Shown here: positions 6,645 through 62,853 of the stretch, one piece after another
Position numbering within the stretch: the stretch's first letter is position 1
Layout: every line of letters starts with the position of its first letter
Assembly (NCBI GenBank): GCA_030696775.1
Contig: JAUYRN010000012.1
Location: forward strand, 65,426 to 129,425
From: Sulfuricurvum sp.
Lineage (GTDB): Bacteria > Campylobacterota > Campylobacteria > Campylobacterales > Sulfurimonadaceae
DNA: 64,000 bases
Direction of reading: 5' to 3'
Made by a program: the position numbers and the translations under genes
The notes under the pieces: generated by a model
Databases searched by the model: none
What the model was told of the DNA's origin: nothing
What the model saw: the letters and a program-made list of their open reading frames with translations, nothing else

Positions 6645-6656
6645 GACTATCCTGTC

Positions 6657-19273: not shown

Positions 19274-19328
19274 TCTCCAACAGTAATTTGAAGAATTAAT
19301 GCATAATGCATTCTATAATCACCTACAT

Positions 19329-40919: not shown

Positions 40920-41070
40920 TGTGTTTTCCTTGGTATAGACAATTTTCTGCCTCATACGAGGCAAGGAATTTTCAAAGCGCCAAAAGCGCAAGGGCCTTCT
41001 GCGAGAGCCAACTCAGTGTGTTTAATGCATCTGAGCTAGACTTTGCTCGCTCAGCTTAGGAAAAAAGGCT

Positions 41071-43013: not shown

Positions 43014-43937
<924 letters not shown>

Positions 43938-43963
43938 TTATTTTTGAACTTCACTGAGGTAGA

Positions 43964-43980
43964 TGCAAAGGATGTTCTAA
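43964..43980 (-). promoter_or_regulatory. Sigma54-like -24/-12 element upstream of nifH (TTAGAACATCCTTTGCA)
   Basis: AG-N10-GC spacing, with GC about 37 nt before the ATG. The same motif occurs at four other nif units. Confidence 0.65.
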
Positions 43981-44179
43981 GGTTTTTTGAACATTTATCG
44001 AAACAACCATGACAAAGCTACGACAATGAAACAAAATTGTAGGAATAGGTGATGCAGGGGTGATCTTTTTTAAATTTACGACATTTTTCCAATTTAAAAT
44101 CCAAACTGATTAAAAATTAGACTGCTAATCTCCTAATAAATGATCTTAAATGGCTACACTTCCTTAAAAAGGGGCTGAT

Positions 44180-44737
44180 ATGACCAATAAAGAAAAATTT
44201 ATCCATAATATGCATCAAGCCAGAACCGCACACATACGCTGGGTCAATGCAATCAAGCTCCTGGTATCCGGTATTGATGTTGATGAGAAACAAATCACAC
44301 TGGATGCAACCCATTCACAATTTGGTTTATGGTATTACAATGAAGCGATGCTTTTCAGCCTAGGATCAAGCCGATTGGTACTTGAAGAGATCGAAAACTA
44401 TCTAATGGAGCTTCATGATAAATACACGAAAATCTATCCTATCTATTATGGAAGTCGCAAACGCAATCTTCTAAGTGAACTTTTAGGAGGAAGATCACGT
44501 GCCAGCGCACATGAAATCGAACTTTCCCAACGATTTTATGAAGAGATCATCCAGCTCTCGGATAAACTCAAACATAAACTTCGTATTTTTGAAGCACAAC
44601 TGATGAGTTTGTCTGAAGAAAAGTTTGATGAATTAAGCAGTTTTACACAAAACGAGGAATTAACGTCTGAAGCAATAGAAATTGAAACTGCTTCTGAAAA
44701 TGAGGGAGCTTATCATTATGGAGCACGGGGGAGATAA
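44180..44737 (+). CDS. Stand-alone CZB-like domain protein
   Basis: AHIRWV, D..H.QFGLWY and LHDKY pattern; the Zn-binding Cys position is Ser. Confidence 0.7.
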   Translation: MTNKEKFIHNMHQARTAHIRWVNAIKLLVSGIDVDEKQITLDATHSQFGLWYYNEAMLFSLGSSRLVLEEIENYLMELHDKYTKIYPIYYGSRKRNLLSELLGGRSRASAHEIELSQRFYEEIIQLSDKLKHKLRIFEAQLMSLSEEKFDELSSFTQNEELTSEAIEIETASENEGAYHYGARGR

Positions 44738-45177
44738 TACATCAGCCCCATATTGCTCGTCTTAAATCCAAAAGTTTGATAAAAAGCAATCGCCGAATCA
44801 TTTCGTCTATCAGCACCTAATGTAATACGTCCATATCCAAGAGTATTTGCAGTATCAATCATAGAACCAAGAAGTAAACGACCAACACCGATTCTGCGAA
44901 ACTCGTTGGAAACAATCATGTCTTCGATCAACCCAACACGTTCACCCATCGCAGTCGAAACAAGTCCTTGCATGGAGATCATACCGATTACCTGCCCGGA
45001 AATTTCTGCAACCAAAACAAGGCAGTTTTTGCTTTCCAGTAAGAGTTCTAAACCCTGCATTTGTTTCTCAATGTCAATAATAAAATCATCTTCGATAAGA
45101 AATAGCTCTGCCAGTAGCCCCGCCATAACACTAACATCATCATAACAAGCATCTCGTATTTTAATGTCAGCGCCCAC
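44716..45177 (-). CDS. GNAT N-acetyltransferase
   Basis: IVSNEFRRIGVGRLL and AIAFYQTFGF. Confidence 0.88.
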   Translation of the reverse strand: MGADIKIRDACYDDVSVMAGLLAELFLIEDDFIIDIEKQMQGLELLLESKNCLVLVAEISGQVIGMISMQGLVSTAMGERVGLIEDMIVSNEFRRIGVGRLLLGSMIDTANTLGYGRITLGADRRNDSAIAFYQTFGFKTSNMGLMYYLPRAP

Positions 45178-45445
45178 TTTTCATTCTCTCTAGGATTTCG
45201 CCCAGTTTATCATTGCGTAATTGAATGAGTCGATCGATTTCATCGTAATCAAATTTCCCAGTATAAGCCATATCAAAGATTCTGAGAAGGGCTGCACGAC
45301 AGCAGCTCTTGTCACACTCTGTGACGAGTTTCTTGGCTTTTTTATAAGGTAGTGAGGTGTCTTGAAAGATCTTGATAGCATCGGCAACACTCTTGCCTCC
45401 GCATTCGCATATTTCGTGGACTAAAACCTCTTCTTTCGTAGGCAT
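45167..45445 (-). CDS. Small Cys-rich protein, possibly BFD-like [2Fe-2S]
   Basis: ICECGG ... CDKSCC in a nif context. Confidence 0.55.
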   Translation of the reverse strand: MPTKEEVLVHEICECGGKSVADAIKIFQDTSLPYKKAKKLVTECDKSCCRAALLRIFDMAYTGKFDYDEIDRLIQLRNDKLGEILERMKSGR

Positions 45446-45456
45446 GACAACATCCC

Positions 45457-45654
45457 TTAAAGAGAATGCTCTGCTTTATACGCATTTGCCTTTTCGACAG
45501 CAACGTAAAGCTTTTCAGCCAGTTCAGGCATTTTTACATGATTACTCCAAACCGTATCTTCAACAATGTCATGAATCTCAGAGGCAACTTCGATTGCCAA
45601 GCGTTTAAGTTTTGCCAACTCTTTTCTTTGTTCTTGTTCGGTCATTTCCGACAT
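45457..45654 (-). CDS. Rop-like / CCE_0567 family nif-associated protein
   Basis: Two-helix protein with an IHDIVED motif resembling the family LHDLxED. Confidence 0.65.
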   Translation of the reverse strand: MSEMTEQEQRKELAKLKRLAIEVASEIHDIVEDTVWSNHVKMPELAEKLYVAVEKANAYKAEHSL

Positions 45655-45747
45655 AATCAATCCTTTTTTTATTTAATTTTACACACTTAAACGAGCAAAG
45701 CCCGTTTAAGTGGCAAGGACAAGTTTGTCCTTTGCAATCCCCTAAAG

Positions 45748-45972
45748 TTAGGCTACACGTATCTCAATGTTTCGGGCTTGATCTTTTCCCAGTGCAATCA
45801 ATCTTTGACCGATTTGGACTTGGACACTGCTTTTAAACAAACCATAGCGTTTTACGCACACGGTAGCATTAGGGCACAGTCCCATATCACAAAGATGCTG
45901 CTTTAGATCATCACTCAAATCTATAGAAAGGACTTTGCATTTTTCATTCACACAACTTTCAAGCAGGTTCAT
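45748..45972 (-). CDS. feoA: FeoA family protein
   Basis: 74 aa with LCDMGL.P...V.V.R.G and IALGK..A..I.I. No feoB nearby. Confidence 0.85.
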   Translation of the reverse strand: MNLLESCVNEKCKVLSIDLSDDLKQHLCDMGLCPNATVCVKRYGLFKSSVQVQIGQRLIALGKDQARNIEIRVA

Positions 45973-46069
45973 GGAATAATCCTTTCAAAAATTCTGCCCC
46001 CAAAGGGGCAAGCTTTAGTGCCATAGCGGCAAGCGTAGGGGCAGGTGTTTTACTCCTGCCTCGTTCAAA

Positions 46070-46897
46070 TTAAAGTGAAAATGCGTAGATATTTTCAAAT
46101 TTGACAGCATGAGCTTCACCATACGACATGTGGATAAACGTCCCTTTTTGCTGAAAGTGGTATTTCTCGTACAATTCAACGGCTTTTGTATTTCCCATCG
46201 GAACATCGGCAAGTACTTTTTTAAGCCCTCTAAAATACAAAACTCCCTGCATCATCTTCTCTGCTTCATCTTCAAACCCCTCACGGCATTGCCATGGTCC
46301 GAGATAGACACCGCGTGCATTAATAACACTGGAGTGTTGGAATGAATTTGGAAGTGCAAATTTCAGTGAGCTGTTCCGTTCCATCTCATCGAGCATAAAT
46401 CCCATACGATTCTCACCAAATGTCTCAAAATCGATTTTACGAATCATCGCATCGAAATTTCCACCGTCAAGCTCTTTGGCCTGAGCATTCGTAAAACTAA
46501 AAGGGGGAACTTTTCCGACATTGAGAAAGCGCCCTACTTCCATAACCGCTTTAAAACCACTCTGCTCAAAAAAAGTCTTAAGCTGAGGATTAGCATGGAG
46601 GTAGAGAGAGGGATGTTCCTCTTTTAAAACACCAAAGAGGGTATTAAAAAGCCGTCGTCCAATCCCTTGTTTTTGATAGGTTGGTTTGACCATAAAATAT
46701 TTTATCATCGCTGAGGATTCAAACTCGATTGCCATGACTGCACCAACAAGCACTCCCTCATCGTAGGCACCATAACACAAATGAGGAGCATGCATCATCA
46801 TGAGTTTGACATGGTATCCATCCAGCAGCCAACCCGTCTCTTCGGCAATTTTAATCAAATCAGGAACATCAACGAACTTTATCCACCCTATATACAT
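46070..46897 (-). CDS. GNAT acetyltransferase (YitH-like two-domain)
   Basis: VKPTYQKQGIGRRLF and a second degenerate GNAT half; coupled to nifV. Confidence 0.8.
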   Translation of the reverse strand: MYIGWIKFVDVPDLIKIAEETGWLLDGYHVKLMMMHAPHLCYGAYDEGVLVGAVMAIEFESSAMIKYFMVKPTYQKQGIGRRLFNTLFGVLKEEHPSLYLHANPQLKTFFEQSGFKAVMEVGRFLNVGKVPPFSFTNAQAKELDGGNFDAMIRKIDFETFGENRMGFMLDEMERNSSLKFALPNSFQHSSVINARGVYLGPWQCREGFEDEAEKMMQGVLYFRGLKKVLADVPMGNTKAVELYEKYHFQQKGTFIHMSYGEAHAVKFENIYAFSL

Positions 46898-48003
46898 GCT
46901 GCATCCTGATAGAGAGATTTAAGTTCGAATACATCCAAAACGCGTTTACGTGAAGTAACAATCTCTCGGATTTTTGGAAGAAGCTCGCTTAATATGCTGT
47001 TATCTGCACTGATACCCATACGCTTTAAATGGTAGCGTATTGTTGCACTGCCAGAGTGTTTACCGATGGGATACGAACTTTCTAGTCCGACTTCTGAAGC
47101 TTGATAAGGCTCATACGCGCTAGAATCTTTCATCATACCGCTTGCATGAATGCCGCTCTCATGGGCGAAAATATGTTCACCCACGACAGGAGCATTGGAT
47201 GCAAGCGTCATATTCGCTGCACCCGCAACTGTACCTACTAAATTTCGAATAAGGAGTGGATCGATGGGACGTGCCTCACCATATAGATGTTTCAATGCCA
47301 TGAGAATCTGTTCAAATGAAGCATTTCCTGCCCTCTCACCTAATCCCATTACCGTAGTATTCATACTAATTGCCCCTGCATCAATTCCGCTAAGAGCATT
47401 TGCATTGGCGAGTCCAAAATCGTTATGAGTGTGCATTTCAATCGGGAGGAGATTTAAATTCGTCAACGATTTGACCGCTTTATACGTTTGTATAGGTGTC
47501 ATAATACCGATCGTATCGCAATAGCGGAAACGCTGTGCTCCACATTCACGGGAAAGCTCCATAACATCTTTAATAAACTCAAAACTGCCTCGTGAGCTGT
47601 CTTCACCGCCTATGCAGACAAACAATCCTTCGCGAGTGGCAGCAGTGACAACTCGTTCGAGTTCGTTTAATACTTTGATTTTACTTCCACCGAATTTTAT
47701 ATCGATCAAAAGATCCGAAATAGGAATGGATAAATCAACCGCTCCAATACCACACGAAAGGGATGCGTCAAGATCTTCCATTTTCATCCGATTCCACGTC
47801 ATCATTCGAGCGCGTAAGCCTAGAGATAAAAGTGCTTTTATATCCTCACGCTCTTTGACACCCATTGCCGCAATACCGATTTCGAGTTCATCCGCTCCGC
47901 ACGCATCCAATAATGTTGCGATACGGATTTTTTCCTCGGTATTGAATGCGACGTAAGCGGCTTGCTCGCCGTCACGCAATGTTGTGTCATTTATGAGTGC
48001 CAT
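46888..48003 (-). CDS. nifV: Homocitrate synthase
   Basis: INDTTLRDGEQ, HTHNDFG, GLGERAGN, HESGIH and GKHSG; downstream of nifB. The true start is MALIND. Confidence 0.92.
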   Translation of the reverse strand: MALINDTTLRDGEQAAYVAFNTEEKIRIATLLDACGADELEIGIAAMGVKEREDIKALLSLGLRARMMTWNRMKMEDLDASLSCGIGAVDLSIPISDLLIDIKFGGSKIKVLNELERVVTAATREGLFVCIGGEDSSRGSFEFIKDVMELSRECGAQRFRYCDTIGIMTPIQTYKAVKSLTNLNLLPIEMHTHNDFGLANANALSGIDAGAISMNTTVMGLGERAGNASFEQILMALKHLYGEARPIDPLLIRNLVGTVAGAANMTLASNAPVVGEHIFAHESGIHASGMMKDSSAYEPYQASEVGLESSYPIGKHSGSATIRYHLKRMGISADNSILSELLPKIREIVTSRKRVLDVFELKSLYQDAACI

Positions 48004-48017
48004 AATAGGTTCCTTCC

Positions 48018-48092
48018 CGTCATCCTCGGGCTTGACCCGGGGATCCATCTTCATTAATGCATAGCTGGATTCCCGCCTTCGCTGGAATGACG
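48018..48092. repeat. CGTC-tagged REP-like palindromic dyad
   Basis: CGTCATCCTCGGGCTTGACCCGGGGATCCA on plus and CGTCATTCCAGCGAAGGCGGGAATCCAG on minus. Each is self-complementary and they lie head-to-head in the nifB-nifV spacer. Confidence 0.75.
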
Positions 48093-48097
48093 ATGTA

Positions 48098-49513
48098 TTA
48101 GTTAACTTCCGCGTTTTCATCCACACCGAAATATTTACGTGACGCTTTGAGGACTGAAATCTCGATTGGCTCATAGGCATAGCTTTGATCCGCCACAATT
48201 CCGGCCGCTTTGAGATCATCTTGTGGACATCCGCCGATTTTAGCCGTCAAAACCATCTGTACATCTTTAAGTTTCTCTAAAATCGGAGCAAGCGGATTCG
48301 TCCCATCAGGACCTGCACAGTATTCTGCATCGACTTTACGGTGATGGATAAATCGAATCCCTTTGTCCCCCGCTTCATAAATCAAGAACTCTTTAACACT
48401 TCCAAAGTGCATGTTAATCATCCCCTCGCCCGCAGTCGTAACCGCAACGAGAATCGTCACACCGTTGGAACTGAGCTCTTCTTTTTCTTTTCGGACACGA
48501 TCATTTGCACGGTCGAGGAAGAATCGGAACTCTTCGATCTTAGCCTGAGCTTCTTGACGCGCTTCGAGGTCGTATTTAATTTGCAGTTCATCGAAACTCA
48601 ACCCTGCAAAGGTATCTTTCGTAAACTCTCCGCCACGGTCTTCACCGATAAGTCCTACGGCATCCGCACGACACTGACGGCAGTGCTGCATCAGTTTCAT
48701 ATCATGACCGCACGCTTCTTGCGCTGCCATTTGCTCTTGGTCAGTTGCACTAGGTACGCCATCAAGGGCAAATTTGGTTCCGAACTCAGGCTCTGAGAGG
48801 ATCGGCATAATGTTATGTAAAAATACCCCAATCTCTTTGAGTTTACGTGATACTTCCGGTAGATGCTGATCGTTAATACCTGGGATCAAAACTGAATTTG
48901 CTTTGATCAAAATCCCTTTTTCGACACATTTACGCATCCCCTCTAGCTGATTTGCCAAGAGTATTTTTGATGCCTCTTTTCCATAGATACGTTTATTGTC
49001 ATGAAAAATCCACGGATAAATCAAACTTCCGATCTCGCCCGTCTCATCAACGCTGTTGATCGTAACGGTAATGTGATCGATGTTGTATTCGACCATCTCA
49101 TCAACAAAGTTTGGTAATTCCAATCCGTTTGTAGAAAGACACAATTTTAAATCCGGTGCAAATTCGCGCACCATACCAAATGTTTCAAATGTCTTTTTAG
49201 GATTTGCCAACGCATCACCTGGCCCTGCAATCCCAAGTACGCTCATACGTTGCACTTCTCCGCCGACGAACATAACTTTCTTCGCCGCTTCCACAGGCGA
49301 GAGGCGTTCAGATGTTACACCCGGACGTGACTCATTCGAACAGTCGTATTTTCGATTACAGTAATTGCATTGGATATTACACGCAGGGGCAACAGCTACG
49401 TGAATACGCGCATAGTGGTGGTGAGCACCTTCTGAATAGCATGGATGATTGTGGATCTTTTCCTTAATATCATCGGGCATAAAAGCTTCGGTTCCAGTTG
49501 ATGAACAGCTCAT
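48098..49513 (-). CDS. nifB: FeMo-cofactor biosynthesis radical SAM protein with C-terminal NifX-like domain
   Basis: HPCY, CNIQCNYC, ESRPG, GIAGPGD, CRQCRADA and a C-terminal HFG. Confidence 0.97.
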   Translation of the reverse strand: MSCSSTGTEAFMPDDIKEKIHNHPCYSEGAHHHYARIHVAVAPACNIQCNYCNRKYDCSNESRPGVTSERLSPVEAAKKVMFVGGEVQRMSVLGIAGPGDALANPKKTFETFGMVREFAPDLKLCLSTNGLELPNFVDEMVEYNIDHITVTINSVDETGEIGSLIYPWIFHDNKRIYGKEASKILLANQLEGMRKCVEKGILIKANSVLIPGINDQHLPEVSRKLKEIGVFLHNIMPILSEPEFGTKFALDGVPSATDQEQMAAQEACGHDMKLMQHCRQCRADAVGLIGEDRGGEFTKDTFAGLSFDELQIKYDLEARQEAQAKIEEFRFFLDRANDRVRKEKEELSSNGVTILVAVTTAGEGMINMHFGSVKEFLIYEAGDKGIRFIHHRKVDAEYCAGPDGTNPLAPILEKLKDVQMVLTAKIGGCPQDDLKAAGIVADQSYAYEPIEISVLKASRKYFGVDENAEVN

Positions 49514-49587
49514 AGTATCTCCTTGTTATTATCATTTTTCAATGATCTTGCCTCATCCGGTGCCAATCATTATCTGAAATCCAGTTA

Positions 49588-49604
49588 TGCAAATAGCGTT
49601 CTTA
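49588..49604 (-). promoter_or_regulatory. Sigma54-like element upstream of nifB (TAAGAACGCTATTTGCA)
   Basis: AG-N10-GC spacing, read directly. Confidence 0.6.
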
Positions 49605-49642
49605 TCGATTAGGAAGTAATCGGGGTGGAATCGTGACAATTT

Positions 49643-49658
49643 TGTATTTATCCAAACA
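49643..49658. promoter_or_regulatory. TGT-N10-ACA NifA-type upstream activator site
   Basis: TGTATTTATCCAAACA, flanked by the inverted pair GTGACAA (49633-49639) / TTGTCAC (49665-49671), midway between two divergent -24/-12 elements. Confidence 0.5.
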
Positions 49659-49700
49659 AAGCCGTTGTCACCTTTTCAAAACTCTATAGATAATGTATGC

Positions 49701-49716
49701 AAGAACAAGAGTTGCA
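49701..49716 (+). promoter_or_regulatory. Sigma54-like element upstream of the NifX-like gene (AAGAACAAGAGTTGCA)
   Basis: AG-N10-GC, with GC about 30 nt before the ATG. Confidence 0.62.
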
Positions 49717-49744
49717 ATAGTTAGGTCAATACAAGGAGCTGACA

Positions 49745-50188: not shown

Positions 50189-50657
50189 AGATATGCCTCT
50201 CGATGTCGGTTATGCCTCTGAAAAAGTGAGCCTTAAAAACCACAAAGATGAGACATTTACCATCGGAGGACAAAACGGATTTACCCAGCTCATATTTTCG
50301 ACCCCTTTTATAAATGATGTGCTTCTAGCACAGTTGGAAGAGATCGATACCTTGTTAGGCCTTAATGCACTGCAAGGTATTACGAAAGCTCTTGTCGTTG
50401 CCAATGGCCAACATGAATTGCCTACACTCGAAGAGTGGTTAAGCGGATATGATCATGATGAGGCTTACGGGGATTATTACGGTGTTCGACTTTCTAATAA
50501 AGAACTTGCCAAATCGCTATTTATTATCTCCAAAGATGGAGCAATCTTCTACCACGAGATTCTCAGTGATTTAAATGCACCATTTAGTATTGACAAAGCA
50601 CTTGCAAAGATCGTCGCTGCCAATAGCTGTTACACAGGTAAAGGGTGTCATGGGTAA
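50151..50657 (+). CDS. Tpx (thiol peroxidase)-like protein without peroxidatic Cys
   Basis: Aligns with Tpx (VGY..V.L, QLIFSTP, YGV, LAKSLFII) but lacks the DTxVC motif. TTG start with a GGAG RBS. Confidence 0.65.
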   Translation: MQIVYNTSTLYLEDMPLDVGYASEKVSLKNHKDETFTIGGQNGFTQLIFSTPFINDVLLAQLEEIDTLLGLNALQGITKALVVANGQHELPTLEEWLSGYDHDEAYGDYYGVRLSNKELAKSLFIISKDGAIFYHEILSDLNAPFSIDKALAKIVAANSCYTGKGCHG

Positions 50658-50693
50658 GTTTTTTTGTGGTAAAATCAAGGCAAGCTATTTGAT

Positions 50694-50757
50694 CCCATTT
50701 TCCCTGAGCTCGTCGAAGGGTAAGAAGTTCATGGTTCGACTGGTTCATCACGAACGG
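50694..50757. repeat. Degenerate REP-like element (CCCTGAGCTCGTCGAAGGG ... GGTTCGACTGGTTCATCACGAACGG)
   Basis: Partly complementary halves (GTCGAA/TTCGAC) that resemble an intergenic repeat family I recall from other bacteria. Family assignment is unverified. Confidence 0.45.
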
Positions 50758-50773
50758 AAAAAAGGTAATTTGA

Positions 50774-53272
50774 ATGGCAATAATAATTCAACCGAATATG
50801 CGACTTGAAGACGTCGAATTTTACAAATATCTACAATCTATCACAAGCCCTTTTCTATCAAATATCGAATCTATAGTTCAAGAAAAAACTATTGTTTTAG
50901 CTAATGAAATTCCAAAAGTTTTTGATACCTATACAATACACGACATAAACCATTCCCTCAGAATTCTTCAACATTGCTACTGTTTAGTTCAGGATAAAAT
51001 AACAGAGATGAATGAACTAGACATCGTCATCCTTTTCTATTCTGCAATACTGCATGACATTGGTATGGCTGTAAGCACAGAAGAGTTAGAACAAATCAAA
51101 ACACAGGGATACAACTATAACGGACTAAAATTTTCTGCAATGCTCCATCAGCGAAATAATGATGAAAAAATTGCGATGCAAGATTTTATCCGAACAATTC
51201 ACGCAGACAGAGCCAATAATTATGTCTTGAATGAACAAAAGAGTAAATATTTACTTCCTTATCAGGAATTTGCAGATTTTCGAGCAGAAGTAGGTAAGGT
51301 TTGCGCATCACATGGTAAAGACTTCTTATGGATTCTAAAAAACCTCTCCAGTGAAACGCTTAAAGGAACCTATAAATTCAATTTACAATTTTGCTCATTT
51401 TTATTGAGATTAGGTGATCTTCTGGACTTTGATAGCAACAGAACACCACCTGTCTTGTATAAGATGATTGAACCTACTGGATATGGAAAAGCTGAATGGC
51501 AACAGCATTTTATGATCAAAAATTTCCAAAAAATCATAGAAAATGAGTCAAAACAAAAAACGATTACTATCATTGGTGAGTCTGATAATCCAAAAATTCA
51601 TAGAAAATTCTTGATGTATCTTAAATGGATTGAAAATGAGGTCGCATCCGTTATTAATGCATTGAAAAAAATGCCGTTATCCTATCAACTCAATTTAAAC
51701 CCTTTTTTGGAGGTCAATATTACGACTTCCAGCTACACCTTCTCCGACAAAAAACTATCAATAGATTATCAGGCCATCACCAAACTTTTGATGGGTGAAA
51801 AAATTTATGGTGACAAAAAACTCGCCCTTAGAGAAATGATTCAAAATTCAATAGATGCGTGTAAACTCAGAAAAGAATTTGAAGATTACAAAAAGCAATA
51901 TGGAGATGAAGAATTCACTGCTTCAATCAAAATAATCATCAATCGTGAAGCGGGCTATGTTGCTATAAAAGACAACGGTATGGGAATGACTATGGATATA
52001 GTCAACAACTATTTTTTAAATATAGGGAAATCCTACTATACCTCGGAATCATTTTTATTAGAAGAGTATAGTTATAAACCGATCGGAAATTTCGGTATCG
52101 GATTTTTAGCCTGTTTTATGCTATCTGATGAAATAAAAATCAGGACAAGGCATATTGATTCAGAGAATAAAATTTCTATTTCATTGGAAAAAGAGAGTGA
52201 ATATATCACACTCCATGAAGAACAAGATGTCCAGTTTGACGGAACAGAAATACTATTTAACTACAGTTCATTTATGAATGAATTTGACAATGATATTGAT
52301 AAATTAAACAAATTTTTAATTCCTCTATTTCTAATCGATGATTTTTCTATTAAAGTTGTTGATGTAGGCGAAAAACAAACTTATGAACTAAAAAATACTT
52401 TATCGCTAAATTCTCAAGACTTGAAACCTAATGAACATATTTTACCTCTTACAGAGTTTTTAAATGGGATTGATGGAAGTATAATTGTCAGATATTATGA
52501 TAGATACATTGATGATTTAACTGATATCACGGAAAAAGAAACTTATTATGTTTATAATAATTTGCGTTTAGAAAAAATAAACTCATCATATAATTTAAGT
52601 GAACTATATCATGATGGTGCATTTTATTTTATAGAGATTCCAATTATTACTTATCAGGATAGAGAGAATTATGATAAATATGCAGAAGCTTTAGATGATG
52701 ACTTAGATAATGTTATTGACAAACTTTCAGAAAATTCTGATTGGATTACTATTTTTTACGATCCAAAAGAAGTAAAAAATATTACCGAAGGCTTTATTGA
52801 CATTGAAATAGATAATATTATGAACAATATTTCATTTAAAGATTTACTCCCATTTGGTCAGGATCAAATATTACCTACAAAAGTATATTTACATCAAACA
52901 AAAGCTCATTTGCAAAAAAATAGATATTTACCTTATGGGAATCGAGAAACAAGATTTTATTACTTTTTTAATAAAGAAGTGAAAACCTATTTAAGAAATA
53001 TTTTAATAAGTGATTTTAAACTTCGTCCTGAGAATTTAGCAGATATATTTACAATTGAAGATTATAAAATCAATGTTATTAACAGAGATATTATTCCATC
53101 TATTTCAAGAAACAATTTTGATCAAAAAACAAATGACAAATTAACTTACGCTTTAACAAAAGCCATACATTTGTCTGCATTAAAATATATAAATTTAGAT
53201 GATACGAAGAAAGCTTTATTAAAAAGTTTTATAGACGAGTATTTTAGTGAAGTGACAAATTTAGAATCATAG
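50774..53272 (+). CDS. HD-domain + HSP90-like GHKL ATPase fusion (832 aa), probable conflict/defence protein
   Basis: YTIHDINH..RI, LHDIGM and LRLGDLLD (HD domain); LREMIQNSIDA, DNGMGM and GNFGIGF (HATPase N, G1 and G2 boxes); AT-rich variable C-terminus. Confidence 0.85.
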   Translation: MAIIIQPNMRLEDVEFYKYLQSITSPFLSNIESIVQEKTIVLANEIPKVFDTYTIHDINHSLRILQHCYCLVQDKITEMNELDIVILFYSAILHDIGMAVSTEELEQIKTQGYNYNGLKFSAMLHQRNNDEKIAMQDFIRTIHADRANNYVLNEQKSKYLLPYQEFADFRAEVGKVCASHGKDFLWILKNLSSETLKGTYKFNLQFCSFLLRLGDLLDFDSNRTPPVLYKMIEPTGYGKAEWQQHFMIKNFQKIIENESKQKTITIIGESDNPKIHRKFLMYLKWIENEVASVINALKKMPLSYQLNLNPFLEVNITTSSYTFSDKKLSIDYQAITKLLMGEKIYGDKKLALREMIQNSIDACKLRKEFEDYKKQYGDEEFTASIKIIINREAGYVAIKDNGMGMTMDIVNNYFLNIGKSYYTSESFLLEEYSYKPIGNFGIGFLACFMLSDEIKIRTRHIDSENKISISLEKESEYITLHEEQDVQFDGTEILFNYSSFMNEFDNDIDKLNKFLIPLFLIDDFSIKVVDVGEKQTYELKNTLSLNSQDLKPNEHILPLTEFLNGIDGSIIVRYYDRYIDDLTDITEKETYYVYNNLRLEKINSSYNLSELYHDGAFYFIEIPIITYQDRENYDKYAEALDDDLDNVIDKLSENSDWITIFYDPKEVKNITEGFIDIEIDNIMNNISFKDLLPFGQDQILPTKVYLHQTKAHLQKNRYLPYGNRETRFYYFFNKEVKTYLRNILISDFKLRPENLADIFTIEDYKINVINRDIIPSISRNNFDQKTNDKLTYALTKAIHLSALKYINLDDTKKALLKSFIDEYFSEVTNLES

Positions 53273-53373
53273 GGTTGGAGTAAATTCGAACCAATATTAA
53301 ACATTTTTGTCTCTTCTCACCCCATTCTCTCCAAAATCCTACAAAATAAGATAATTTTACTCCTATTTCCAAC

Positions 53374-53389
53374 AAGAACGCAAAATGCA
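53374..53389 (+). promoter_or_regulatory. Sigma54-like element upstream of SIR2-clpP-clpX (AAGAACGCAAAATGCA)
   Basis: AG-N10-GC, with GC about 34 nt before the ATG. Confidence 0.58.
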
Positions 53390-53421
53390 ATATTCCATTC
53401 AAAGTTCCAAAAGGGATCACG

Positions 53422-54252
53422 ATGGACACACAAATCGAAACAATAAAAAAAGAATTACGCAATCAAACCACCATTCCCTACTTCGGATTGGGTGTCTTTG
53501 AGGGGATCATGACAAAAGAGGGAGAAGCCGTTCCTCATGACAGTGATTCGCTGATTTTGGCGATGAATGGCGGGCGGGCTATGGCTCCACGCCTCATGTT
53601 TGAGTACTCACGTGCGGCGATGCATTTGGAACAGCGTCGCGGTGTCGAGTACATGACACAGCTTATGAATCATATCTATACCAAACCATTCGAGCCGACA
53701 CCATTGCACAAAGCGATCATTGATATGTCACCACGCTACATCGTTGATACCAATCGCGACACGAAGTTTCAAGAACTTTTAGCGTTTACTCCGCATTGTC
53801 TCATCATTGGTAAATCACGCATCATGGGTGATTTAAACCGCTATGAAACGTATGAATACGATGTTGAGAATCAGAAATATTTTCTCGTAGATGATGAGGT
53901 GCTAGAGAGTGCGGAAAAAATCCTCTTCAAACCGATGGGCTCACCGTTACCTAATCCAACCTTTGTCATCTCCGATGCCGATTACGTAGATTGGCTTACC
54001 GAAGCGATGGGAGGATTTGCCGTGCCAAAAGTACTAAAAACCTACCGTAAAGCAAAAAAATATCTCTTTTTAGGCACATCTTTCGGTCACGATACCGATC
54101 GGATGGTGGCTAACGAGCTTAGCTTTGATTTGGAGGGTGGATATGTCATCACCGATCAAGAGCTGGGGAAAAAAGAGAAAAAGTTTATCGAGAAACACAA
54201 TATTGAAGTGATTCCTATGTCACTTCAAGAATTTATCCAAGCATTCATTTAA
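53422..54252 (+). CDS. SIR2-like family protein (nif-associated type)
   Basis: IPYFGLGV, IVDTNRD, LFKPMGS, ISDADYV and YLFLG, the SIR2_2 pattern. Confidence 0.75.
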   Translation: MDTQIETIKKELRNQTTIPYFGLGVFEGIMTKEGEAVPHDSDSLILAMNGGRAMAPRLMFEYSRAAMHLEQRRGVEYMTQLMNHIYTKPFEPTPLHKAIIDMSPRYIVDTNRDTKFQELLAFTPHCLIIGKSRIMGDLNRYETYEYDVENQKYFLVDDEVLESAEKILFKPMGSPLPNPTFVISDADYVDWLTEAMGGFAVPKVLKTYRKAKKYLFLGTSFGHDTDRMVANELSFDLEGGYVITDQELGKKEKKFIEKHNIEVIPMSLQEFIQAFI

Positions 54253-54263
54253 AGGAGATAATC

Positions 54264-54857: not shown

Positions 54858-54860
54858 GTG

Positions 54861-56075: not shown

Positions 56076-56110
56076 GCTTCTGCATCATTACCGTAGAGAA
56101 TTTACTCTTT

Positions 56111-56137
56111 TGTATGCTTTGTCTGTCAAAGTATACA
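56111..56137 (+). terminator. Hairpin after clpX
   Basis: TGTATGCTTTG / CAAAGTATACA stem with one G-U pair. Confidence 0.45.
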
Positions 56138-56225
56138 ATTACGCTCAATCTTAAGGGTAGCCAGTTAATATGTATAAGCTTATTATGATCAATAAGTAAT
56201 AAGTTTATACAACAGGGAAATACCT

Positions 56226-59200
56226 ATGACAGTAATAACAGAGAATGCTCAGACAGACCAATTCTCTGAAACGAACAATACAATTGATCCTTACGATACT
56301 GATACCCAATTAAATTTTCCCATTGTAGGCATAGGCGCTTCCGCTGGAGGTTTAGCGGCTTTTGAGGCGTTCTTTTCAGGTTTGCCCGCTAATGTTGATT
56401 CTGAAATGGCGTATGTGCTCGTTCAGCATCTTTCTCCCGAGCATAAAAGTATACTGACAGAGCTCATCAGCCACTATACCAGTATGAAAGTTTTCGAAGT
56501 TGAAGATGGTATGGCGGTACAGCCCAATTGTGTTTATGTCATTCCACCCGGTCAGGATATGGCTATTTTAAATGGAATTCTGCAACTTTTTGAGCCTACT
56601 GAACTGCATGGTCATCGTTTACCCATTAATTATTTTTTTCGTTCTTTGGCACAAGATCAGGCACAAAAAGCTATCGCTATCATCTTGACAGGTACTGGCA
56701 GTGATGGAACATTAGGAATACAAGCCATTAAGGCAGAAGGTGGAATGGTGATGGCTCAAAGCCTCAATTCTGCTGAGTACGATGGAATGCCTAGCAGTGC
56801 CATCGCAACAGGACTTGTGGATTACGAACTTTCGCCCTCTGAAATGCCCCTCAAACTGATAGACTATGTGACCCATGCGTTTGGAACTCCGCCACGCACT
56901 CCCACCTCTCCAACATTGCAGTATGAAAATTCGCTCAAGAAAATTTTTATCCTTCTTCGTGCCCAAACCGGTCATGATTTTTCCCTCTATAAACCCAGTA
57001 CCATTTATCGTCGTATTGAACGACGCATGGTGGTTCACCAAATTGATGAGATAGGCAAATACGTTAAATATTTACAAAATACACCGACCGAGATAGTAGC
57101 ATTGTTTCGTGACTTGTTAATTGGTGTCACCAATTTTTTCCGTGACCCAGAAGCATTTAAGCTACTTGAAGAATATATCATTCCCAAACTTTTTATCGCT
57201 AAACCCGAAGGAAGTGTCATTCGAATTTGGTCGACGGGATGTTCTACGGGCGAAGAAGCGTACTCCATAGCAATACTTTTGTCAGAGTATATGGAAGCCA
57301 TGAAATTGCACCATGTGGTTCAGATCTTTGCTACGGACATCGATGCTCAAGCAATAGCAAAAGCACGTACTGGGCTATTTTCATCCAGTATATCAACTGA
57401 AGTTACAGCAGAACGACTGGGACGTTTTTTTACAGCTGAGCCCGATGGCAGTATGTATCGAATCCATAAAAATATTCGTGATATGCTGATTTTTTCAGAA
57501 CATAATATTATTAAAGATCCTCCCTTCTCTAGGCTGGACCTCATTTCCTGCCGCAATCTTCTCATTTATATGGGGTCAGAGTTGCAAAAAAAACTTTTTC
57601 CATTATTTCATTATGCACTTAATTCCAATGGTATCCTTTTTTTAGGCACCTCCGAATGCATCGGCGATTTTACCGACCTATTTTCGGTAATGGATCGAAA
57701 AGCAAAAATATACCAACGAAAAGAACAGCTCTATGGAGTAAAACGGACAAATATAAAACAGCTCCTTCCCTCGATAAGCACCATTCGCACGGTCATTTCT
57801 CAGCCAGCAGGAAAGCTCTCTGAGCGGAAACTACCCCTTCGCGAGCTAACCGAGCAGGCACTCTTACAACAAATTGCACCCTCTGGAGCACTTGTTAATA
57901 TAAAAGGTGACATTCTCTACCTTTATGGGCGTATGGGAATGTATCTGGAATTACCTGTGGGTGAAACCAGCAGTATTAATATTCTAAAAATGGCGCGTGA
58001 AGGTTTACAGCGTGATTTAACGATTGCTTTGCATAAAGCCGTCTCCTCAAAAGAGATTATTCGCTACTCTAGTTTGAGCATCAATGTTAATGGCCATTTC
58101 AATACCATCAATCTCACCATCCGACCAGTAGTGATTTCTGTCGATCCTACGGTAACACCTGAGTCTCCTTTGTACTTGATTATTCTTGAAGAAGTACCGC
58201 TGACAGAGGTACAAAGAGCTCAAAAAAAGGCTCTCCAAACATTATCACAAGAAGATGGATCAAATCAAGAAGAGCATTTTAGTATTGAGCTATTGAAAAA
58301 AGAGTTGTGGGCGAAAGAAGAATATCTTCAAATTGCCAATGAAGAGATGGAAAGCTCCAATGAAAAACTGAAATCCTCAAACGAAGAGATGCAATCCATA
58401 AACGAAGAGTTACAATCGACCAATGAAGAGCTTGAAACGTCGAAAGAAGAGTTACAATCCGCGAATGAAGAGTTGGCAACCGTTAATATCGAACTGCAAA
58501 CCAAAGTCTCTGATTTATCCCTTGCCAATAATGATATGAACAATTTACTCGCAGGAACGGGTGTGGGTACGGTTTTTGTGGATCACCAACTGCGTATTCT
58601 CCGTTTCACTCCCGAAGCTAAAATGATAATCAACCTTATATCCGGTGATGAGGGAAGACCTGTTTCTCATATTGTTTCCAACTTAATCGGCTATATTAAC
58701 CTAGTGGATGATGTGCAGGCGGTGCTGGATACCTTGATGCCAAAAGAGTTGGATGTCCAAACAGTGATTGGTAAATGGTACACGATGCGTATCCTCCCCT
58801 ACCGAACGATTGACAACGTCATTGAGGGTGCTGTCATTACTTTTATAGACAATACCGCCCGTAAAGATGCCGAAGCCGCACTCTATAAAGCAGGAACGCT
58901 GCAAAGAGCTATTTTTAACAGTACTAATTTTTCCAGTATTGCTACCGATAAAAAGGGCGTTATTCAAATTTTTAACGTTGGTGCAGAGAAAATGTTAGGC
59001 TATGCAGCCACGGAGGTGATGAACAAAATCACACCGGCTGATATTTCTGATCCGACAGAAATCATCCAGAGGGCTGAAAGTTTAAGTTTGGAATTCAACA
59101 CACCCATAGCCCCAGGCTTTGAAGCGTTGGTGTTCAAAGCTTCCCGTGAGATCGAGGATATATATGAGCTTACGTATGTTCGTAAAGATGGCAGTCGCTT

Positions 59201-59699
59201 TCCGGCAGTCGTTTCTGTGACGGCTTTACGTGACGATAAAGAGAAGATTATCGGCTACTTACTCATCGGTACAGACAATACGGCTCGCAAAGAAGCAGCA
59301 GAAGCACAGCTCAAAGTTAATGAGTTGCTTCGTTTAGCCGTAGTTGTACGTGATGCGCATGATGCCATTACCGTTCAAAGCTTGGATGGTACGATTCTTG
59401 CCTGGAATCCCGGAGCCGTGAGAATGTATGGTTGGAGTGAAGAGGAAGCACTAAAAATGAATGTACGCGACCGCATACCAAAAGCGCTCCAAGAAGAAGC
59501 GCTAGTGCGAGTACATCAGTTGAGCCAAGCTGAAGTCTTGGAGCCATTATTTACACAACGAATGAGAAAAGACGCTCAAACAGTAGAAGTCTGGCTGACG
59601 GCTACTGCTTTAGTAAATGAAAGCGGTAATATCTATGCAGTAGCCACCACAGAACGGATGATTGAATCAAAAATCAATATGAAGAGAGTAACCTCATGA
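56226..59699 (+). CDS. CheB methylesterase-CheR methyltransferase-PAS fusion (1157 aa)
   Basis: CheB S/H/D (GASAGG, VQHL, TGSDG); CheR VTNFFRD and GCSTGEE; a long coiled coil; three C-terminal PAS/PAC modules; no kinase domain. Confidence 0.93.
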   Translation: MTVITENAQTDQFSETNNTIDPYDTDTQLNFPIVGIGASAGGLAAFEAFFSGLPANVDSEMAYVLVQHLSPEHKSILTELISHYTSMKVFEVEDGMAVQPNCVYVIPPGQDMAILNGILQLFEPTELHGHRLPINYFFRSLAQDQAQKAIAIILTGTGSDGTLGIQAIKAEGGMVMAQSLNSAEYDGMPSSAIATGLVDYELSPSEMPLKLIDYVTHAFGTPPRTPTSPTLQYENSLKKIFILLRAQTGHDFSLYKPSTIYRRIERRMVVHQIDEIGKYVKYLQNTPTEIVALFRDLLIGVTNFFRDPEAFKLLEEYIIPKLFIAKPEGSVIRIWSTGCSTGEEAYSIAILLSEYMEAMKLHHVVQIFATDIDAQAIAKARTGLFSSSISTEVTAERLGRFFTAEPDGSMYRIHKNIRDMLIFSEHNIIKDPPFSRLDLISCRNLLIYMGSELQKKLFPLFHYALNSNGILFLGTSECIGDFTDLFSVMDRKAKIYQRKEQLYGVKRTNIKQLLPSISTIRTVISQPAGKLSERKLPLRELTEQALLQQIAPSGALVNIKGDILYLYGRMGMYLELPVGETSSINILKMAREGLQRDLTIALHKAVSSKEIIRYSSLSINVNGHFNTINLTIRPVVISVDPTVTPESPLYLIILEEVPLTEVQRAQKKALQTLSQEDGSNQEEHFSIELLKKELWAKEEYLQIANEEMESSNEKLKSSNEEMQSINEELQSTNEELETSKEELQSANEELATVNIELQTKVSDLSLANNDMNNLLAGTGVGTVFVDHQLRILRFTPEAKMIINLISGDEGRPVSHIVSNLIGYINLVDDVQAVLDTLMPKELDVQTVIGKWYTMRILPYRTIDNVIEGAVITFIDNTARKDAEAALYKAGTLQRAIFNSTNFSSIATDKKGVIQIFNVGAEKMLGYAATEVMNKITPADISDPTEIIQRAESLSLEFNTPIAPGFEALVFKASREIEDIYELTYVRKDGSRFPAVVSVTALRDDKEKIIGYLLIGTDNTARKEAAEAQLKVNELLRLAVVVRDAHDAITVQSLDGTILAWNPGAVRMYGWSEEEALKMNVRDRIPKALQEEALVRVHQLSQAEVLEPLFTQRMRKDAQTVEVWLTATALVNESGNIYAVATTERMIESKINMKRVTS

Positions 59700-61603
59700 T
59701 TGTCGATGAAAATTTTGATGGTGTAGAAATTCTTCCAAAAAATTTACGTTTGCAAGCCGAAAGAATCGCTTGCGAAAACATGGATGAGTCACGAGAAGAC
59801 TTAGAAAAAATGTTGCCCGAAGAAATCGGACGTATACTGCATGAATTACGTGTTCATCAAATCGAATTGGAAATGCAAAACGAGGAATTACGTCAAACGC
59901 AAATAGAGCTTGATGCCCAACGTGAGCGTTATTTTGATCTCTATGATCTGGCTCCGGTAGGCTATTGTACTCTCTCCGAGGCGGGATTAATATTAGAAGC
60001 TAACTTAACCGCTGCTGTACTGCTTGGGGTTAGCCGAAATAATCTAGTTGGGCGGCTCATGTCTAAATTTGTCCACAAAGAAGATCAAAACAACTACTAT
60101 CTGTACCGTAAAAAATTCTTTAAATCGGATGAAAAATTCTCTTTTGAATTACGTTTGCTTCGTGAAAATAATCCACCCTTTTGGGCGCATCTAGTAACGA
60201 TTGCTGCAAAAAATAGTGATAATATTTCCGTCGTTCGGCTAGTAATGAGCGATATTACCGAAAAAAAGCTATACGAAAATGAGTTAAACCGAATTGCCCA
60301 GTATGATGCACTGACCAATCTTCCCAATCGTGTACTGCTATCCGATCGCCTCAGTCAAGGGATGGCTCAGTCCCAACGTCATGGACTCCCTTTGGGCGTT
60401 GTTTATCTCGACTTAGATGGATTTAAAGAAGTCAATGATACTCATGGTCATGAAGTAGGCGATCATGTCCTCATTACCCTCTCCAATCAAATGAAACAAA
60501 CACTTCGAGAGGGGGATACCATTGCTCGAATAGGAGGAGATGAGTTCGTTATACTTTTGCTTGATTTGAATACTATCGAAGATGCTATTCCTATGATTAT
60601 CCGTCTTTTAGAGGCAACCTCCAAGCCATTAAATGTCGATGATCTATTATTGCAGATCACTGCAAGTCTAGGGGTAACTTTTTACCCGCAAGCTCAAAAA
60701 ATAGATACAGATTTACTCTTACGTCAAGCAGATCAAGCAATGTATCAAGCCAAATTAGCCGGCAGAAATCGCTATCATGTTTTTGATACACAGCAAGACA
60801 CACTTCTTCGAGAAAGATATGAATTTATAGAAAATATGCATAAAGCAATGCAATTATCTGAATTTCTCCTCTATTATCAGCCAAAAGTCAATATGAAAAC
60901 AGGAGTTGTTATTGGAGTAGAGGCGCTGATTCGATGGCAACATCCCAAAAATGGTCTCTTACCACCAGCTCTATTTTTACCTATGATTGAAGATCATCCA
61001 CTCTCTATTGAACTAGGAGAGTGGGTCATCAATGCGGCCTTAACCCAAATGGAACGTTGGCATCACGAGGGAGTCGATGTTCACATAAGCGTTAATGTTA
61101 GTGCTCGACAGCTTCAAGAAGATAATTTTGTCAACCGTTTACAGGAGATTTTAGCGTTACATCCGGACATTAATCCTGCTTATTTAGAGCTTGAAGTGTT
61201 AGAAACCAGTAAGCTAGAAGACATGACCCGAATCTCTAAAATTATTCAATCGTGCCGAGAGTTCGAAGTATTATTTTCGCTTGATGATTTTGGTACCGGT
61301 TATTCTTCTCTCACGTATCTCCAGCAGTTACCCATCGCCACGATAAAAATTGATCAAAGCTTTATTCGCGATATGTTTAATAATCCCAATGATATTGCAA
61401 TCTTATCAGGGATTATCAGCCTTGCTCATGCATTTCATTTGAATATAATCGCTGAGGGGGTAGAAACCATAGCGCACGGAGAACTGTTATTACAAATGGG
61501 ATGTGAATGTGCACAAGGCTACGCCATCGCTCGCCCAATGCCAGCACATGAGTTTCCTGGCTGGTTAGCTACTTGGTGTTCATACTCAGAGTGGATCAAA
61601 TAG
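59696..61603 (+). CDS. PAS-GGDEF-EAL protein
   Basis: HQIELEMQNEEL coil, PAS, intact GGDEF and EAL. ATGA overlap with the CheB/CheR gene. Confidence 0.93.
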   Translation: MIVDENFDGVEILPKNLRLQAERIACENMDESREDLEKMLPEEIGRILHELRVHQIELEMQNEELRQTQIELDAQRERYFDLYDLAPVGYCTLSEAGLILEANLTAAVLLGVSRNNLVGRLMSKFVHKEDQNNYYLYRKKFFKSDEKFSFELRLLRENNPPFWAHLVTIAAKNSDNISVVRLVMSDITEKKLYENELNRIAQYDALTNLPNRVLLSDRLSQGMAQSQRHGLPLGVVYLDLDGFKEVNDTHGHEVGDHVLITLSNQMKQTLREGDTIARIGGDEFVILLLDLNTIEDAIPMIIRLLEATSKPLNVDDLLLQITASLGVTFYPQAQKIDTDLLLRQADQAMYQAKLAGRNRYHVFDTQQDTLLRERYEFIENMHKAMQLSEFLLYYQPKVNMKTGVVIGVEALIRWQHPKNGLLPPALFLPMIEDHPLSIELGEWVINAALTQMERWHHEGVDVHISVNVSARQLQEDNFVNRLQEILALHPDINPAYLELEVLETSKLEDMTRISKIIQSCREFEVLFSLDDFGTGYSSLTYLQQLPIATIKIDQSFIRDMFNNPNDIAILSGIISLAHAFHLNIIAEGVETIAHGELLLQMGCECAQGYAIARPMPAHEFPGWLATWCSYSEWIK

Positions 61604-61617
61604 AGTGACCTTCCTTC

Positions 61618-61633
61618 TCGAACAAATCTTGCA
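61618..61633 (+). promoter_or_regulatory. Sigma54-like element upstream of nifS (TCGAACAAATCTTGCA)
   Basis: CG-N10-GC, with GC about 37 nt before the ATG. Confidence 0.58.
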
Positions 61634-61659
61634 TTAGTCCTTATAATAACGACACATGA

Positions 61660-62853
<1,194 letters not shown>

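Follow-up and report, generated by a model that had tools for sequence, protein, structure and literature searches.

The stretch of DNA analyzed here (the window, 64 kb in length) comes from Sulfuricurvum, a genus of the Sulfurimonadaceae (Campylobacterota), and carries nitrogen fixation (nif) genes preceded by a short shared element that has the spacing of a sigma-54 (-24/-12) promoter and, in most copies, an A in place of the G expected at position -25. The encoded NifH is identical to that of the metagenome-assembled genome (MAG) GCA_049303035.1, and NifD has 94-98% identity to its counterparts in Sulfuricurvum MAGs. On the minus strand, nifH (43014-43928) heads the operon nifH-orf119-nifD-nifK, in which a 119-aa open reading frame (ORF; 42552-42911) precedes nifD (41071-42537) and nifK (39375-40991). 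A 185-aa ORF with a weak CZB-domain match (44180-44737, plus strand) diverges from nifH, and after it comes a minus-strand block of a GNAT gene, a 92-aa ORF, a Rop-like gene, feoA, another GNAT gene, nifV, and nifB (48098-49513). A 147-aa ORF and then a 168-aa ORF diverge from nifB, and farther along lie a SIR2_2 gene (53422-54252, plus strand), followed by clpP and clpX, and an epsilon-type nifS (61669-62853).

The element occurs in the window well above expectation. Against 100 dinucleotide shuffles of the window, GAAC-N5-WTGCA is found 7 times where 1.48 copies are expected, and none of the 100 shuffles reaches 7; the relaxed form GAAY-N5-WTGCA is found 14 times (4.24 expected, with 9 in the highest shuffle). 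We counted a copy as being in promoter position when it was intergenic, on the correct strand, and ahead of an ORF start. Eight of the 14 copies are so placed, 25-76 nt ahead of the start, as are six of the seven copies of AGAAY-N5-WTGCA, and one exact GAAC-N5-WTGCA match, at 7418, falls inside lpxD. At the eight sites, which all read xGAAY-N5-WTGCA, -24 is always G, -25 is A six times, C once, and G once, and the GC at -13/-12 lies exactly 10 nt past the -25/-24 dinucleotide; as a class, they lack the textbook GG. The five elements of the original prediction are all present on the strands assigned to them, and its distances also hold, the C of the GC standing 30-37 nt from the ATG in four units (nifH, 37; 147-aa ORF, 30; SIR2, 34; nifS, 37) and 76 nt from it in nifB. 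Its expectation that the motif would exceed its frequency in random DNA is borne out by the shuffles. No flagellar-type sequence, GGNAY-N5-TTGCT, occurs in the 64 kb.

Ahead of nifH, TTAGAACATCCTTTGCA (43964-43980, minus strand) has A at -25, G at -24, and GC at -13/-12, with a predicted transcription start (+1) at about 43953, and every Sulfuricurvum nifH upstream region carries TAGAAY-N5-WTGCA with a variable spacer. The promoter predicted for nifB(-nifV...), TAAGAACGCTATTTGCA (49588-49604, minus strand; +1 at about 49577), recurs as AAGAAC or TAGAAC-N5-TTGCA upstream of nifB in L006, L009, L015, L019, L023, and L027 (L-numbers label the loci fetched for comparison). That of the divergent 147-aa ORF, AAGAACAAGAGTTGCA (49701-49716, plus strand; +1 at about 49727), has counterparts reading (A/G)AGAAC-N5-TTGCA in L006, L009, and L027 and AAGAAC-N5-ATGCA in L015. 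The SIR2_2-clpP-clpX promoter, AAGAACGCAAAATGCA (53374-53389, plus strand; +1 at about 53400), is kept in L009 as AAGAATGTAAAATGCA and unchanged in L027. L001, L002, and L006 lack this promoter; their SIR2 gene is joined to the operon ahead of it, with an ATG that overlaps the preceding stop codon. A comparison of the window with L001 would allow the promoter to be part of a foreign insert; this is ruled out, as L027 has the promoter without the 3-kb insert and L009 shares the promoter. In Sulfurimonas L019, SIR2-clpP has an AAGAAC promoter of its own, TAAGAACTTCCTTTGCA, and in Arcobacter L040 a GGAAC promoter, AAGGAACAACTCTTGCA, precedes a SIR2 homologue adjoining nifA.

Three sites add to the list of the original prediction. 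The first, AAGAACAAAAGTTGCA (17365-17380, minus strand; predicted +1 at about 17354), lies 63 nt ahead of an operon of an aldo-keto reductase (AKR; 16460-17302, minus strand) and citrate synthase; it has 15 of 16 bases in common with the 147-aa ORF promoter, and a TATACT lies downstream. Many further Campylobacterota nif islands have an AKR gene behind a nif-type promoter, and these AKRs differ from that of the window, to which they give no tblastn match. The second, TAGAATGCATTATGCA (19300-19315, minus strand; predicted +1 at about 19289), lies 27 nt ahead of a 75-aa Cys-rich ORF (19046-19273, minus strand) that has a 70-aa tandem paralogue (18824-19036, minus strand). Orthologues of this small protein are encoded 3' of nifK in L007, L008, L015, L020, L026, L027, and L174, each behind AGAAY-N5-ATGCA, and the small-protein promoter of L011 is GGAAC. 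The third, AGGAATAGGTGATGCA (44041-44056, plus strand), is divergent from nifH, faces the 185-aa ORF, and is the sole GG-type site in the window. Its -24 and -12 blocks are kept in other loci around a variable spacer, with GG in L012, L065, and L017 and AG in L018 and L021.

Two elements of the original prediction fared less well. The nifS site, TCGAACAAATCTTGCA (61618-61633, plus strand), is present with a C at -25, but a perfect TATAAT follows at 61642-61647 and offers an equally good sigma-70 reading, so we regard this site as doubtful as a sigma-54 promoter. Comparison upstream of nifS was limited to L090, which is identical to the window, and a C likewise occupies -25 ahead of nifE in Sulfurimonas L174 and L183. 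The weaker sixth element, proposed for the Rop-like gene, exists as a sequence but is ruled out as a promoter: the G at -24 is missing, and the sequence makes up the loop of a hairpin, CACTTAAACG-GGCTTTGCT-CGTTTAAGTG (45684-45712, minus strand), with a 10-bp stem, between feoA and the Rop-like gene. A better element, TGAAT or TGAAC-N5-TTGCA, stands ahead of the Rop-like gene in L006, L007, and L009.

The DNA ahead of nifH was compared across 80 nifD loci, one genome per species, divided into class 1, Sulfuricurvum and Sulfurimonas-like genomes (Sulfurimonadaceae), and class 2, Sulfurovum, Arcobacteraceae, and Sulfurospirillum. The class 1 nifH element reads AAAACCnTAGAAY-N5-WTGCA, with a varying spacer and a constant A-G...TGC frame, and only L016 and L025 depart from it, with GGGAAY. 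Class 2 has the canonical TGGAAC or CGGAAC-N5-ATGCA at an equal distance from the ATG, with one AG exception, L044. Because this canonical GG element occupies the same position ahead of nifH, the AG element corresponds by position to an ordinary sigma-54 -24/-12 promoter. Other promoters match in position as well, those of nifH, nifX-like, SIR2, NifU, and small-protein genes in Arcobacteraceae, Sulfurovum, and Sulfurospirillum reading TGGAAC or CGGAAC-N5-WTGCA. The spacing of xGAAY-N5-WTGCA never differs between species, whereas the sequence of its spacer does.

We also scanned all loci regulon-wide, leaving -25, -23, and -11 free and counting unique sites in promoter position. Among 87 class 1 sites, -25 is A in 63 (about 72%), G in 11, C in 8, and T in 5, compared with G in 43 of 54 class 2 sites; -11 is A in both classes (79/87 and 47/54). 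The class 1 sites precede nifH, nifB, the 147-aa ORF, SIR2, the small Cys-rich protein, NifU, and PII-like, Tpx-like, and feoA genes, and the class 2 sites precede nifH, nifE, nifX-like, aldo-keto reductase, SIR2, ferredoxin, and NifU genes. AGAAY-N5-WTGCA is the form of nif promoters across about 25 Sulfurimonadaceae species, and the nif promoters of L174, L183, and L188 are again AG, or CG at nifE. The original prediction had read these elements as -24/-12 promoters systematically lacking the -25 G and had suggested examining orthologous promoters in other diazotrophic Campylobacterota; that comparison, with AG in Sulfurimonadaceae and GG ahead of the same genes in sister families, sustains both points. 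Judged by these alignments, the window elements are supported as -24/-12 sigma-54-type promoters with a family-wide A at -25. The A reads as a strong preference and not an absolute requirement, because G and A interchange at orthologous promoters.

If the variant were common to all sigma-54 promoters of this organism, as the original prediction allowed, flagellar promoters would share it; those of Sulfuricurvum keep GG. We collected flgE loci from metagenome contigs with the N-terminus of Campylobacter jejuni FlgE (PDB 5jxl) as query, and nearly all their upstream regions contain TGGAAY or TGGCAC-N5-TTGCTT. Overall, -25 is G in 63 of 65 flgE sites and -11 is T in 63 of 65; the choice among multiple candidate sites favored these two bases, and the raw sequences give the same picture. 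A Sulfuricurvum group (L118, L129, L134, L137, L145, L146, L149, and L155) was recognized by protein search, the FlgE of L155 having 96% identity to proteins named Sulfuricurvum sp. at NCBI, and the flgE locus of Candidatus Sulfuricurvum RIFRC-1 (CP003920) falls in the same group; tetranucleotide similarity, tried before for genus assignment, was rejected as too weak and driven by GC content. GG together with a T at -11 is seen in seven of these eight metagenomic flgE promoters, the off-spacing site of L155 being the exception, and in the fliK and flgE promoters of RIFRC-1, giving TGGAAY-N5-TTGCTT as the Sulfuricurvum flagellar form. In 79.5 kb of Sulfuricurvum flagellar loci, AGAAY-N5-WTGCA does not occur, and GGNAY-N5-TTGCT occurs 17 times, 10 of them in promoter position. 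The nifH promoter has A at -25 in 10 of 10 Sulfuricurvum species and the flagellar promoters have G in 9 of 9 (Fisher p = 1.1e-5). In the sampled loci the two classes do not mix and can be told apart at sigma-contacted bases, namely A (nif) versus T (flgE) at -11, a difference that is phylum-wide, and A versus G at -25 in Sulfuricurvum; both are correlations only.

A candidate enhancer accompanies several of the promoters. ACAWWTTTGT occurs five times in the window against 1.5 expected, and three copies stand 40-70 nt upstream of -24 boxes: ACAATTTTGT between the nifH and 185-aa ORF promoters (44031-44040), ACAATTTTGT again between the nifB and 147-aa ORF promoters (49636-49645), and ACATTTTTGT 64 nt upstream of the SIR2 promoter (53301-53310), the last in common with L009. 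ACAAWTTTGT(C) is kept in all Sulfuricurvum nifH upstream regions, GTGACAATTTTGT is kept at the nifB/147-aa region of L001, L002, L006, L009, and L027, and a similar AACATTTTTGT stands ahead of the nif-linked rpoN in L171, L175, and L182. We infer that an activator would bind at this sequence. The enhancer typical of NifA, TGT-N10-ACA, has a single copy (49643-49658), overlapping the element at 49636-49645, and none was found ahead of nifH, SIR2, AKR, the small protein, or nifS. A different palindrome, TTACATGTAA, lies upstream of nifH and AKR nif promoters in the Sulfurospirillum-like loci L178/L179, L055, L061, and L041, which suggests that these loci may use an enhancer other than the ACAWWTTTGT of Sulfuricurvum.

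Neither rpoN, a sigma-54 activator gene, nifA, nor flagellar genes are found within the window, and extending the search beyond it reached the contig end on the left and a 1.7-kb contig on the right. Such genes do occur in related nif islands. A NifA-like protein (GAF, Sigma54_activat, HTH_8) is encoded in L018 of class 1 (5921-7558) and in L037, L039, L040 (16274-17839), and L048 of class 2; it has 36-40% identity to alphaproteobacterial NifA, and GAFTDA replaces GAFTGA as its sigma-54 contact loop in both promoter classes. In class 2, rpoN lies just upstream of nifH in ten loci (L033, L034, L037, L039, L040 at 6102-7349, L042, L052, L054, L058, and L062), with the RpoN box MVRRTITKYRK (KRTITKYR in L058). 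Arcobacter has lost flagellar RpoN, FlgRS, and FliA (PMC9321776), and its nif-island rpoN is therefore nif-dedicated; flagellar RpoN is reported from all flagellated Campylobacterota other than Arcobacter (PMC9321776).

Further nif-linked rpoN loci, in class 1-type islands, are represented by sequences from a whole-library search and an additional homologue search. In Sulfurimonas sp. L174, rpoN ends the series nifE-nifN-nifX-DUF269-flavodoxin-nifW-nifZ-fdx-rpoN, and in the Sulfurimonas-type loci L183-187 and L188 this same module is followed by NifU-AKR-FAD-NifT. A third lineage, rpoN-AKR-FAD-NifT, comprises L171-177, L182, and L190 (GC content 0.43-0.49), and one of its contigs is from the same run series as window-like contigs. 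The rpoN of L183 stands behind CTAGAAT-N5-ATGCA, an AG-type promoter that suggests positive autoregulation. Across these loci and L178, nif-island rpoN forms at least four divergent lineages across Campylobacterota, with about 44-62% identity between them. As a separate observation, the lineage of L171/L175 has no Pfam match to Sigma54_AID (region I). Also, the Campylobacterota nif islands L018, L040, L048, L171-178, L182-188, and L190 share a module, found alongside rpoN or nifA, that consists of an AKR (~365 aa), NifT, and a FAD-binding protein (~550 aa) resembling succinate dehydrogenase/aspartate oxidase.

The RpoN box of the class 1 nif-linked RpoNs reads RRS in place of the RRT found in others, and both arginines of the box are kept in either form. 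We considered this change as the cause of the A at -25 and ruled it out, since L178 (RRSVTKYR) and L171/L175/L182 (RRSITKYR) have GG promoters. The RpoN-box comparison that the original prediction had proposed thus yields a T-to-S change that does not track the variant, and its idea of an altered sigma specificity is not supported, given the interchange of G and A, the one GG promoter inside the cluster, and the occurrence of RRS together with GG promoters. Its suggestion of a nif-dedicated RpoN paralogue fares better in part: nif-linked rpoN genes exist in Campylobacterota, including Sulfurimonas, but none lies in the window or is tied to its species.

Transcription data bear on the predicted start of nifH. 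This nifH is present in four wastewater runs labelled RNA-Seq, and contigs of high depth from X26-X28 stop at 43954/43955, which is one or two bases away from the +1 predicted at 43953. We do not take these ends as a transcription start. They coincide with the first strain single-nucleotide polymorphism (SNP) and reflect a branch of the assembly graph, the first base being variable between strains; a variant contig with a depth of 160-198 runs on to 43979, and the drop in depth upstream of 43954 coincides with strain divergence beyond the mapping threshold. Over the nifB/147-aa region, the RNA-labelled runs have flat, background depth.

On balance, we consider it probable that the elements are activator-dependent sigma-54 promoters of the Sulfuricurvum nif regulon. 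A NifA-like activator bound at ACAWWTTTGT, 40-70 bp upstream, would drive open-complex formation by a holoenzyme that probably contains a nif-dedicated sigma-54 paralogue encoded outside the window, and the family-specific A at -25, together with the phylum-wide A at -11, may help to separate the nif and flagellar sigma-54 regulons. It is tempting, if tentative, to go further and view the Sulfurimonadaceae as having a natural orthogonal sigma-54 system, in which a nif RpoN and a GAFTDA-type NifA would read AGAAY-N5-WTGCA, insulated from the flagellar RpoN and FlgR acting at TGGAAY-N5-TTGCTT, with -25 and -11 as discriminators and a paralogue that is partly self-driven. The family-wide A at -25 is a solid observation, and a dedicated sigma factor in this genome and a discriminating role for that A are what we infer from it.

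Several points weigh against this interpretation. A G at -25 is normally near-essential for sigma-54 binding, so function with A in this place needs explaining. G and A swap at orthologous promoters (nifH of L016 and L025, the small protein of L011, and the 44041 family), the AKR promoter adjoining rpoN in L171/L175/L182 is GG, and the RRT-to-RRS change is also found in L178, whose nifH and AKR promoters are GG. Both rpoN and nifA are absent from the 64-kb window, and no rpoN has been assigned to its species. The candidate enhancer is missing at the AKR and small-protein sites, the RNA-labelled data, confounded by strain mixtures, give no transcription start, and the selection of flgE sites leaned toward the flagellar consensus, as described above.

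The likeliest alternative is that one sigma-54 serves both regulons and that the A at -25 only weakens binding, making the promoters tightly dependent on their activator and discriminating nothing; the nif-linked rpoN genes of relatives would then be redundant or absent here. It draws on the lack of rpoN in the window and its absence up to 10 kb from nifD in all Sulfuricurvum loci, on the interchange of G and A, on the GG promoters inside the regulon, and on an RpoN-box change that does not follow the variant. We nevertheless think it rather unlikely, as any base other than G would weaken binding and this would not give A, which is kept over many operons in about 25 species; moreover, every readable Sulfurimonadaceae-type nifEN or NifU-AKR-NifT island has an adjacent rpoN, and AG-type sites are absent from the 79.5 kb of flagellar loci. 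We judge it very improbable that the motif belongs to a sigma-70-type promoter or serves as operator for some other regulator that responds to nitrogen or redox state. The missing -25 G and the TATAAT and TATACT after the nifS and 17365 sites would suit such a reading, but the element is asymmetric and of fixed spacing, keeps the sigma-54 contacts (G at -24, TGC at -14 to -12) while its spacer is free, aligns with canonical GG-N10-GC promoters in sister families, and belongs to nif islands in which genes for a NifA-like enhancer-binding protein (EBP) and rpoN are embedded. Chance likeness in A+T-rich intergenic DNA, for which one can cite a short motif and two unconvincing exact matches of seven (7418 in lpxD and the doubtful nifS site), is refuted for the nifH, nifB, 147-aa ORF, and SIR2 sites by shuffles that never reach the observed count, by a motif kept across species while spacers vary, and by its absence from the 79.5 kb sampled from Sulfuricurvum flagellar loci.

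Interpreted as nif promoters of the sigma-54 type, the elements also define regulon members. The original prediction had assigned SIR2, clpP, and clpX to the nif regulon, and this assignment is supported by the promoter kept in L009 and L027 and by the nif-type promoters that SIR2(-clpP) has of its own in L019 and L040; a nif-linked clpX is known in Azotobacter vinelandii. Promoter comparison likewise supports the 147- and 168-aa ORFs as members, but the names NifX-like and Tpx-like given to them are not confirmed, since they lack Pfam support and their sole match is a sub-threshold one to the NCBIfam thiol peroxidase. No nif-type promoter was found ahead of the genes for a 1157-aa CheB-CheR-PAS fusion (56226-59699, plus strand), downstream of clpX on the same strand, and a GGDEF-EAL protein (59696-61603, plus strand), which lie between the nif block and nifS.

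Other features of the locus deserve mention. The 119-aa ORF between nifH and nifD has no Pfam or NCBIfam family and is not a PII/NifI protein; it is kept in this place in essentially all Campylobacterota nif loci fetched, with 33-94% identity. The longest nifV ORF (443 aa; 46888-48219, minus strand) runs about 120 nt into the 3' end of nifB, and in relatives nifV is called as a 371-aa form (L001, 5996-7111); the true start is probably internal to the 443-aa ORF. The small Cys-rich pair contains the motif M(E/D)HHVV(I/V)EKLC(S/A)CAK...FCG.H and matches no Pfam family, and elsewhere in the Sulfurimonadaceae the gene is found 3' of nifK or 5' of nifE, and a nif-type promoter precedes it in every case. 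A strain-variable segment of low GC content (50414-53300; 0.32-0.36) separates the 168-aa ORF from the SIR2 promoter as an insertion, replaces the 3' end of the 168/171-aa gene and is absent from L001, L002, L006, and L027. It encodes an 832-aa protein (50774-53272) with HD-CE and HATPase_c_3 domains and weak matches to BbrUII/HgiDII-type restriction enzymes; as a defence gene we rejected it, with only a weak PADLOC match to a type II restriction endonuclease model. Finally, an intergenic element, GCCGCTA(T/A)GGCACTAAAGCTTGCCCC-loop-GGGGCAG, lies upstream of feoA (~45975-46035, minus strand) and, in L188, upstream of a flavodoxin gene (7439). It combines a hairpin with TGGCAC-N6-TTGC, one base off sigma-54 spacing, and is common to the Sulfuricurvum of the window and this distant, high-GC relative.

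The proposed system bears parallels to the NifA/sigma-54 nif promoters of Proteobacteria (TGGCAC-N5-TTGCW, with TGT-N10-ACA), including the -24/-12 architecture, the exact spacing, the placement before nifH, nifB, nifE, and nifU operons, and a GAF-AAA+-HTH homologue of NifA in related Campylobacterota nif islands. It differs from them in having A instead of G at -25, AGAAY instead of TGGCAC as the -24 box, ACAWWTTTGT as the candidate enhancer, with TGT-N10-ACA found once, and a GAFTDA instead of a GAFTGA loop. With the flagellar promoters of Campylobacter and Helicobacter (TTGGAAC-N5-TTGCTT), the nif sites have the GAAC core and spacing in common, whereas the two sets differ at -25 (G in the flagellar promoters, A in the nif promoters described here) and at -11 (T and A, respectively), and the flagellar activator is FlgR, as opposed to a NifA-like protein for nif. 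A second rpoN is also known from duplications in Rhizobium etli (rpoN2), Bradyrhizobium, Ralstonia, and Xanthomonas. The nitrogen-fixation-associated rpoN2 of R. etli is itself NifA/sigma-54 dependent, which is paralleled by the AG-type promoter ahead of the L183 rpoN; we know of no altered -24 consensus reported for such duplicated systems.

In Cereibacter sphaeroides, promoter discrimination between RpoN1/NifA, dedicated to nif, and RpoN2/FleQ, dedicated to the flagellum, involves the -11 base and the pairing with the cognate EBP (PMC11999139). As in that species, nif and flagellar promoters differ here at -11, and nif-linked rpoN paralogues exist in related genomes. Unlike it, the present case concerns another phylum, includes a difference at -25 that is not described there, and involves a paralogue specificity, and a pair of rpoN genes in one Sulfuricurvum genome, that are presumed by analogy. 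The one hint here that a paralogue may need its own activator is the GAFTDA loop of the NifA-like proteins. Studies of RpoN have established that R455/R456 read the -24 element, that R456H/L/Y retarget its second base (GG to GA, GT, or GC), and that RpoN-box changes can insulate a nif pathway from the host sigma-54 (PMC12096077). The natural change described here, by contrast with these engineered variants, affects the first base (GG to AG), with both arginines kept. In the literature on Campylobacterota (Sulfurimonas, Sulfuricurvum, Arcobacter, and Sulfurospirillum), we found no account of sigma-54 nif promoters, nif-linked rpoN, or the AG variant.

The GG of the -24 element is regarded as near-invariant and is built into most prediction tools, which as a result would overlook or mis-assign the nif regulon throughout a family of sulfur oxidizers that are abundant in the environment. 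The promoters described here may provide parts for orthogonal sigma-54 expression systems, and the contrast of AG at nif and GG at flagellar genes inside a single genus, taken with the nif-linked rpoN copies, makes a natural test case of how two sigma-54 regulons are separated. For the organisms themselves, our findings widen the nif regulon of Campylobacterota to include SIR2_2-ClpP-ClpX, small Cys-rich proteins, aldo-keto reductases, and the 119-aa gene between nifH and nifD.

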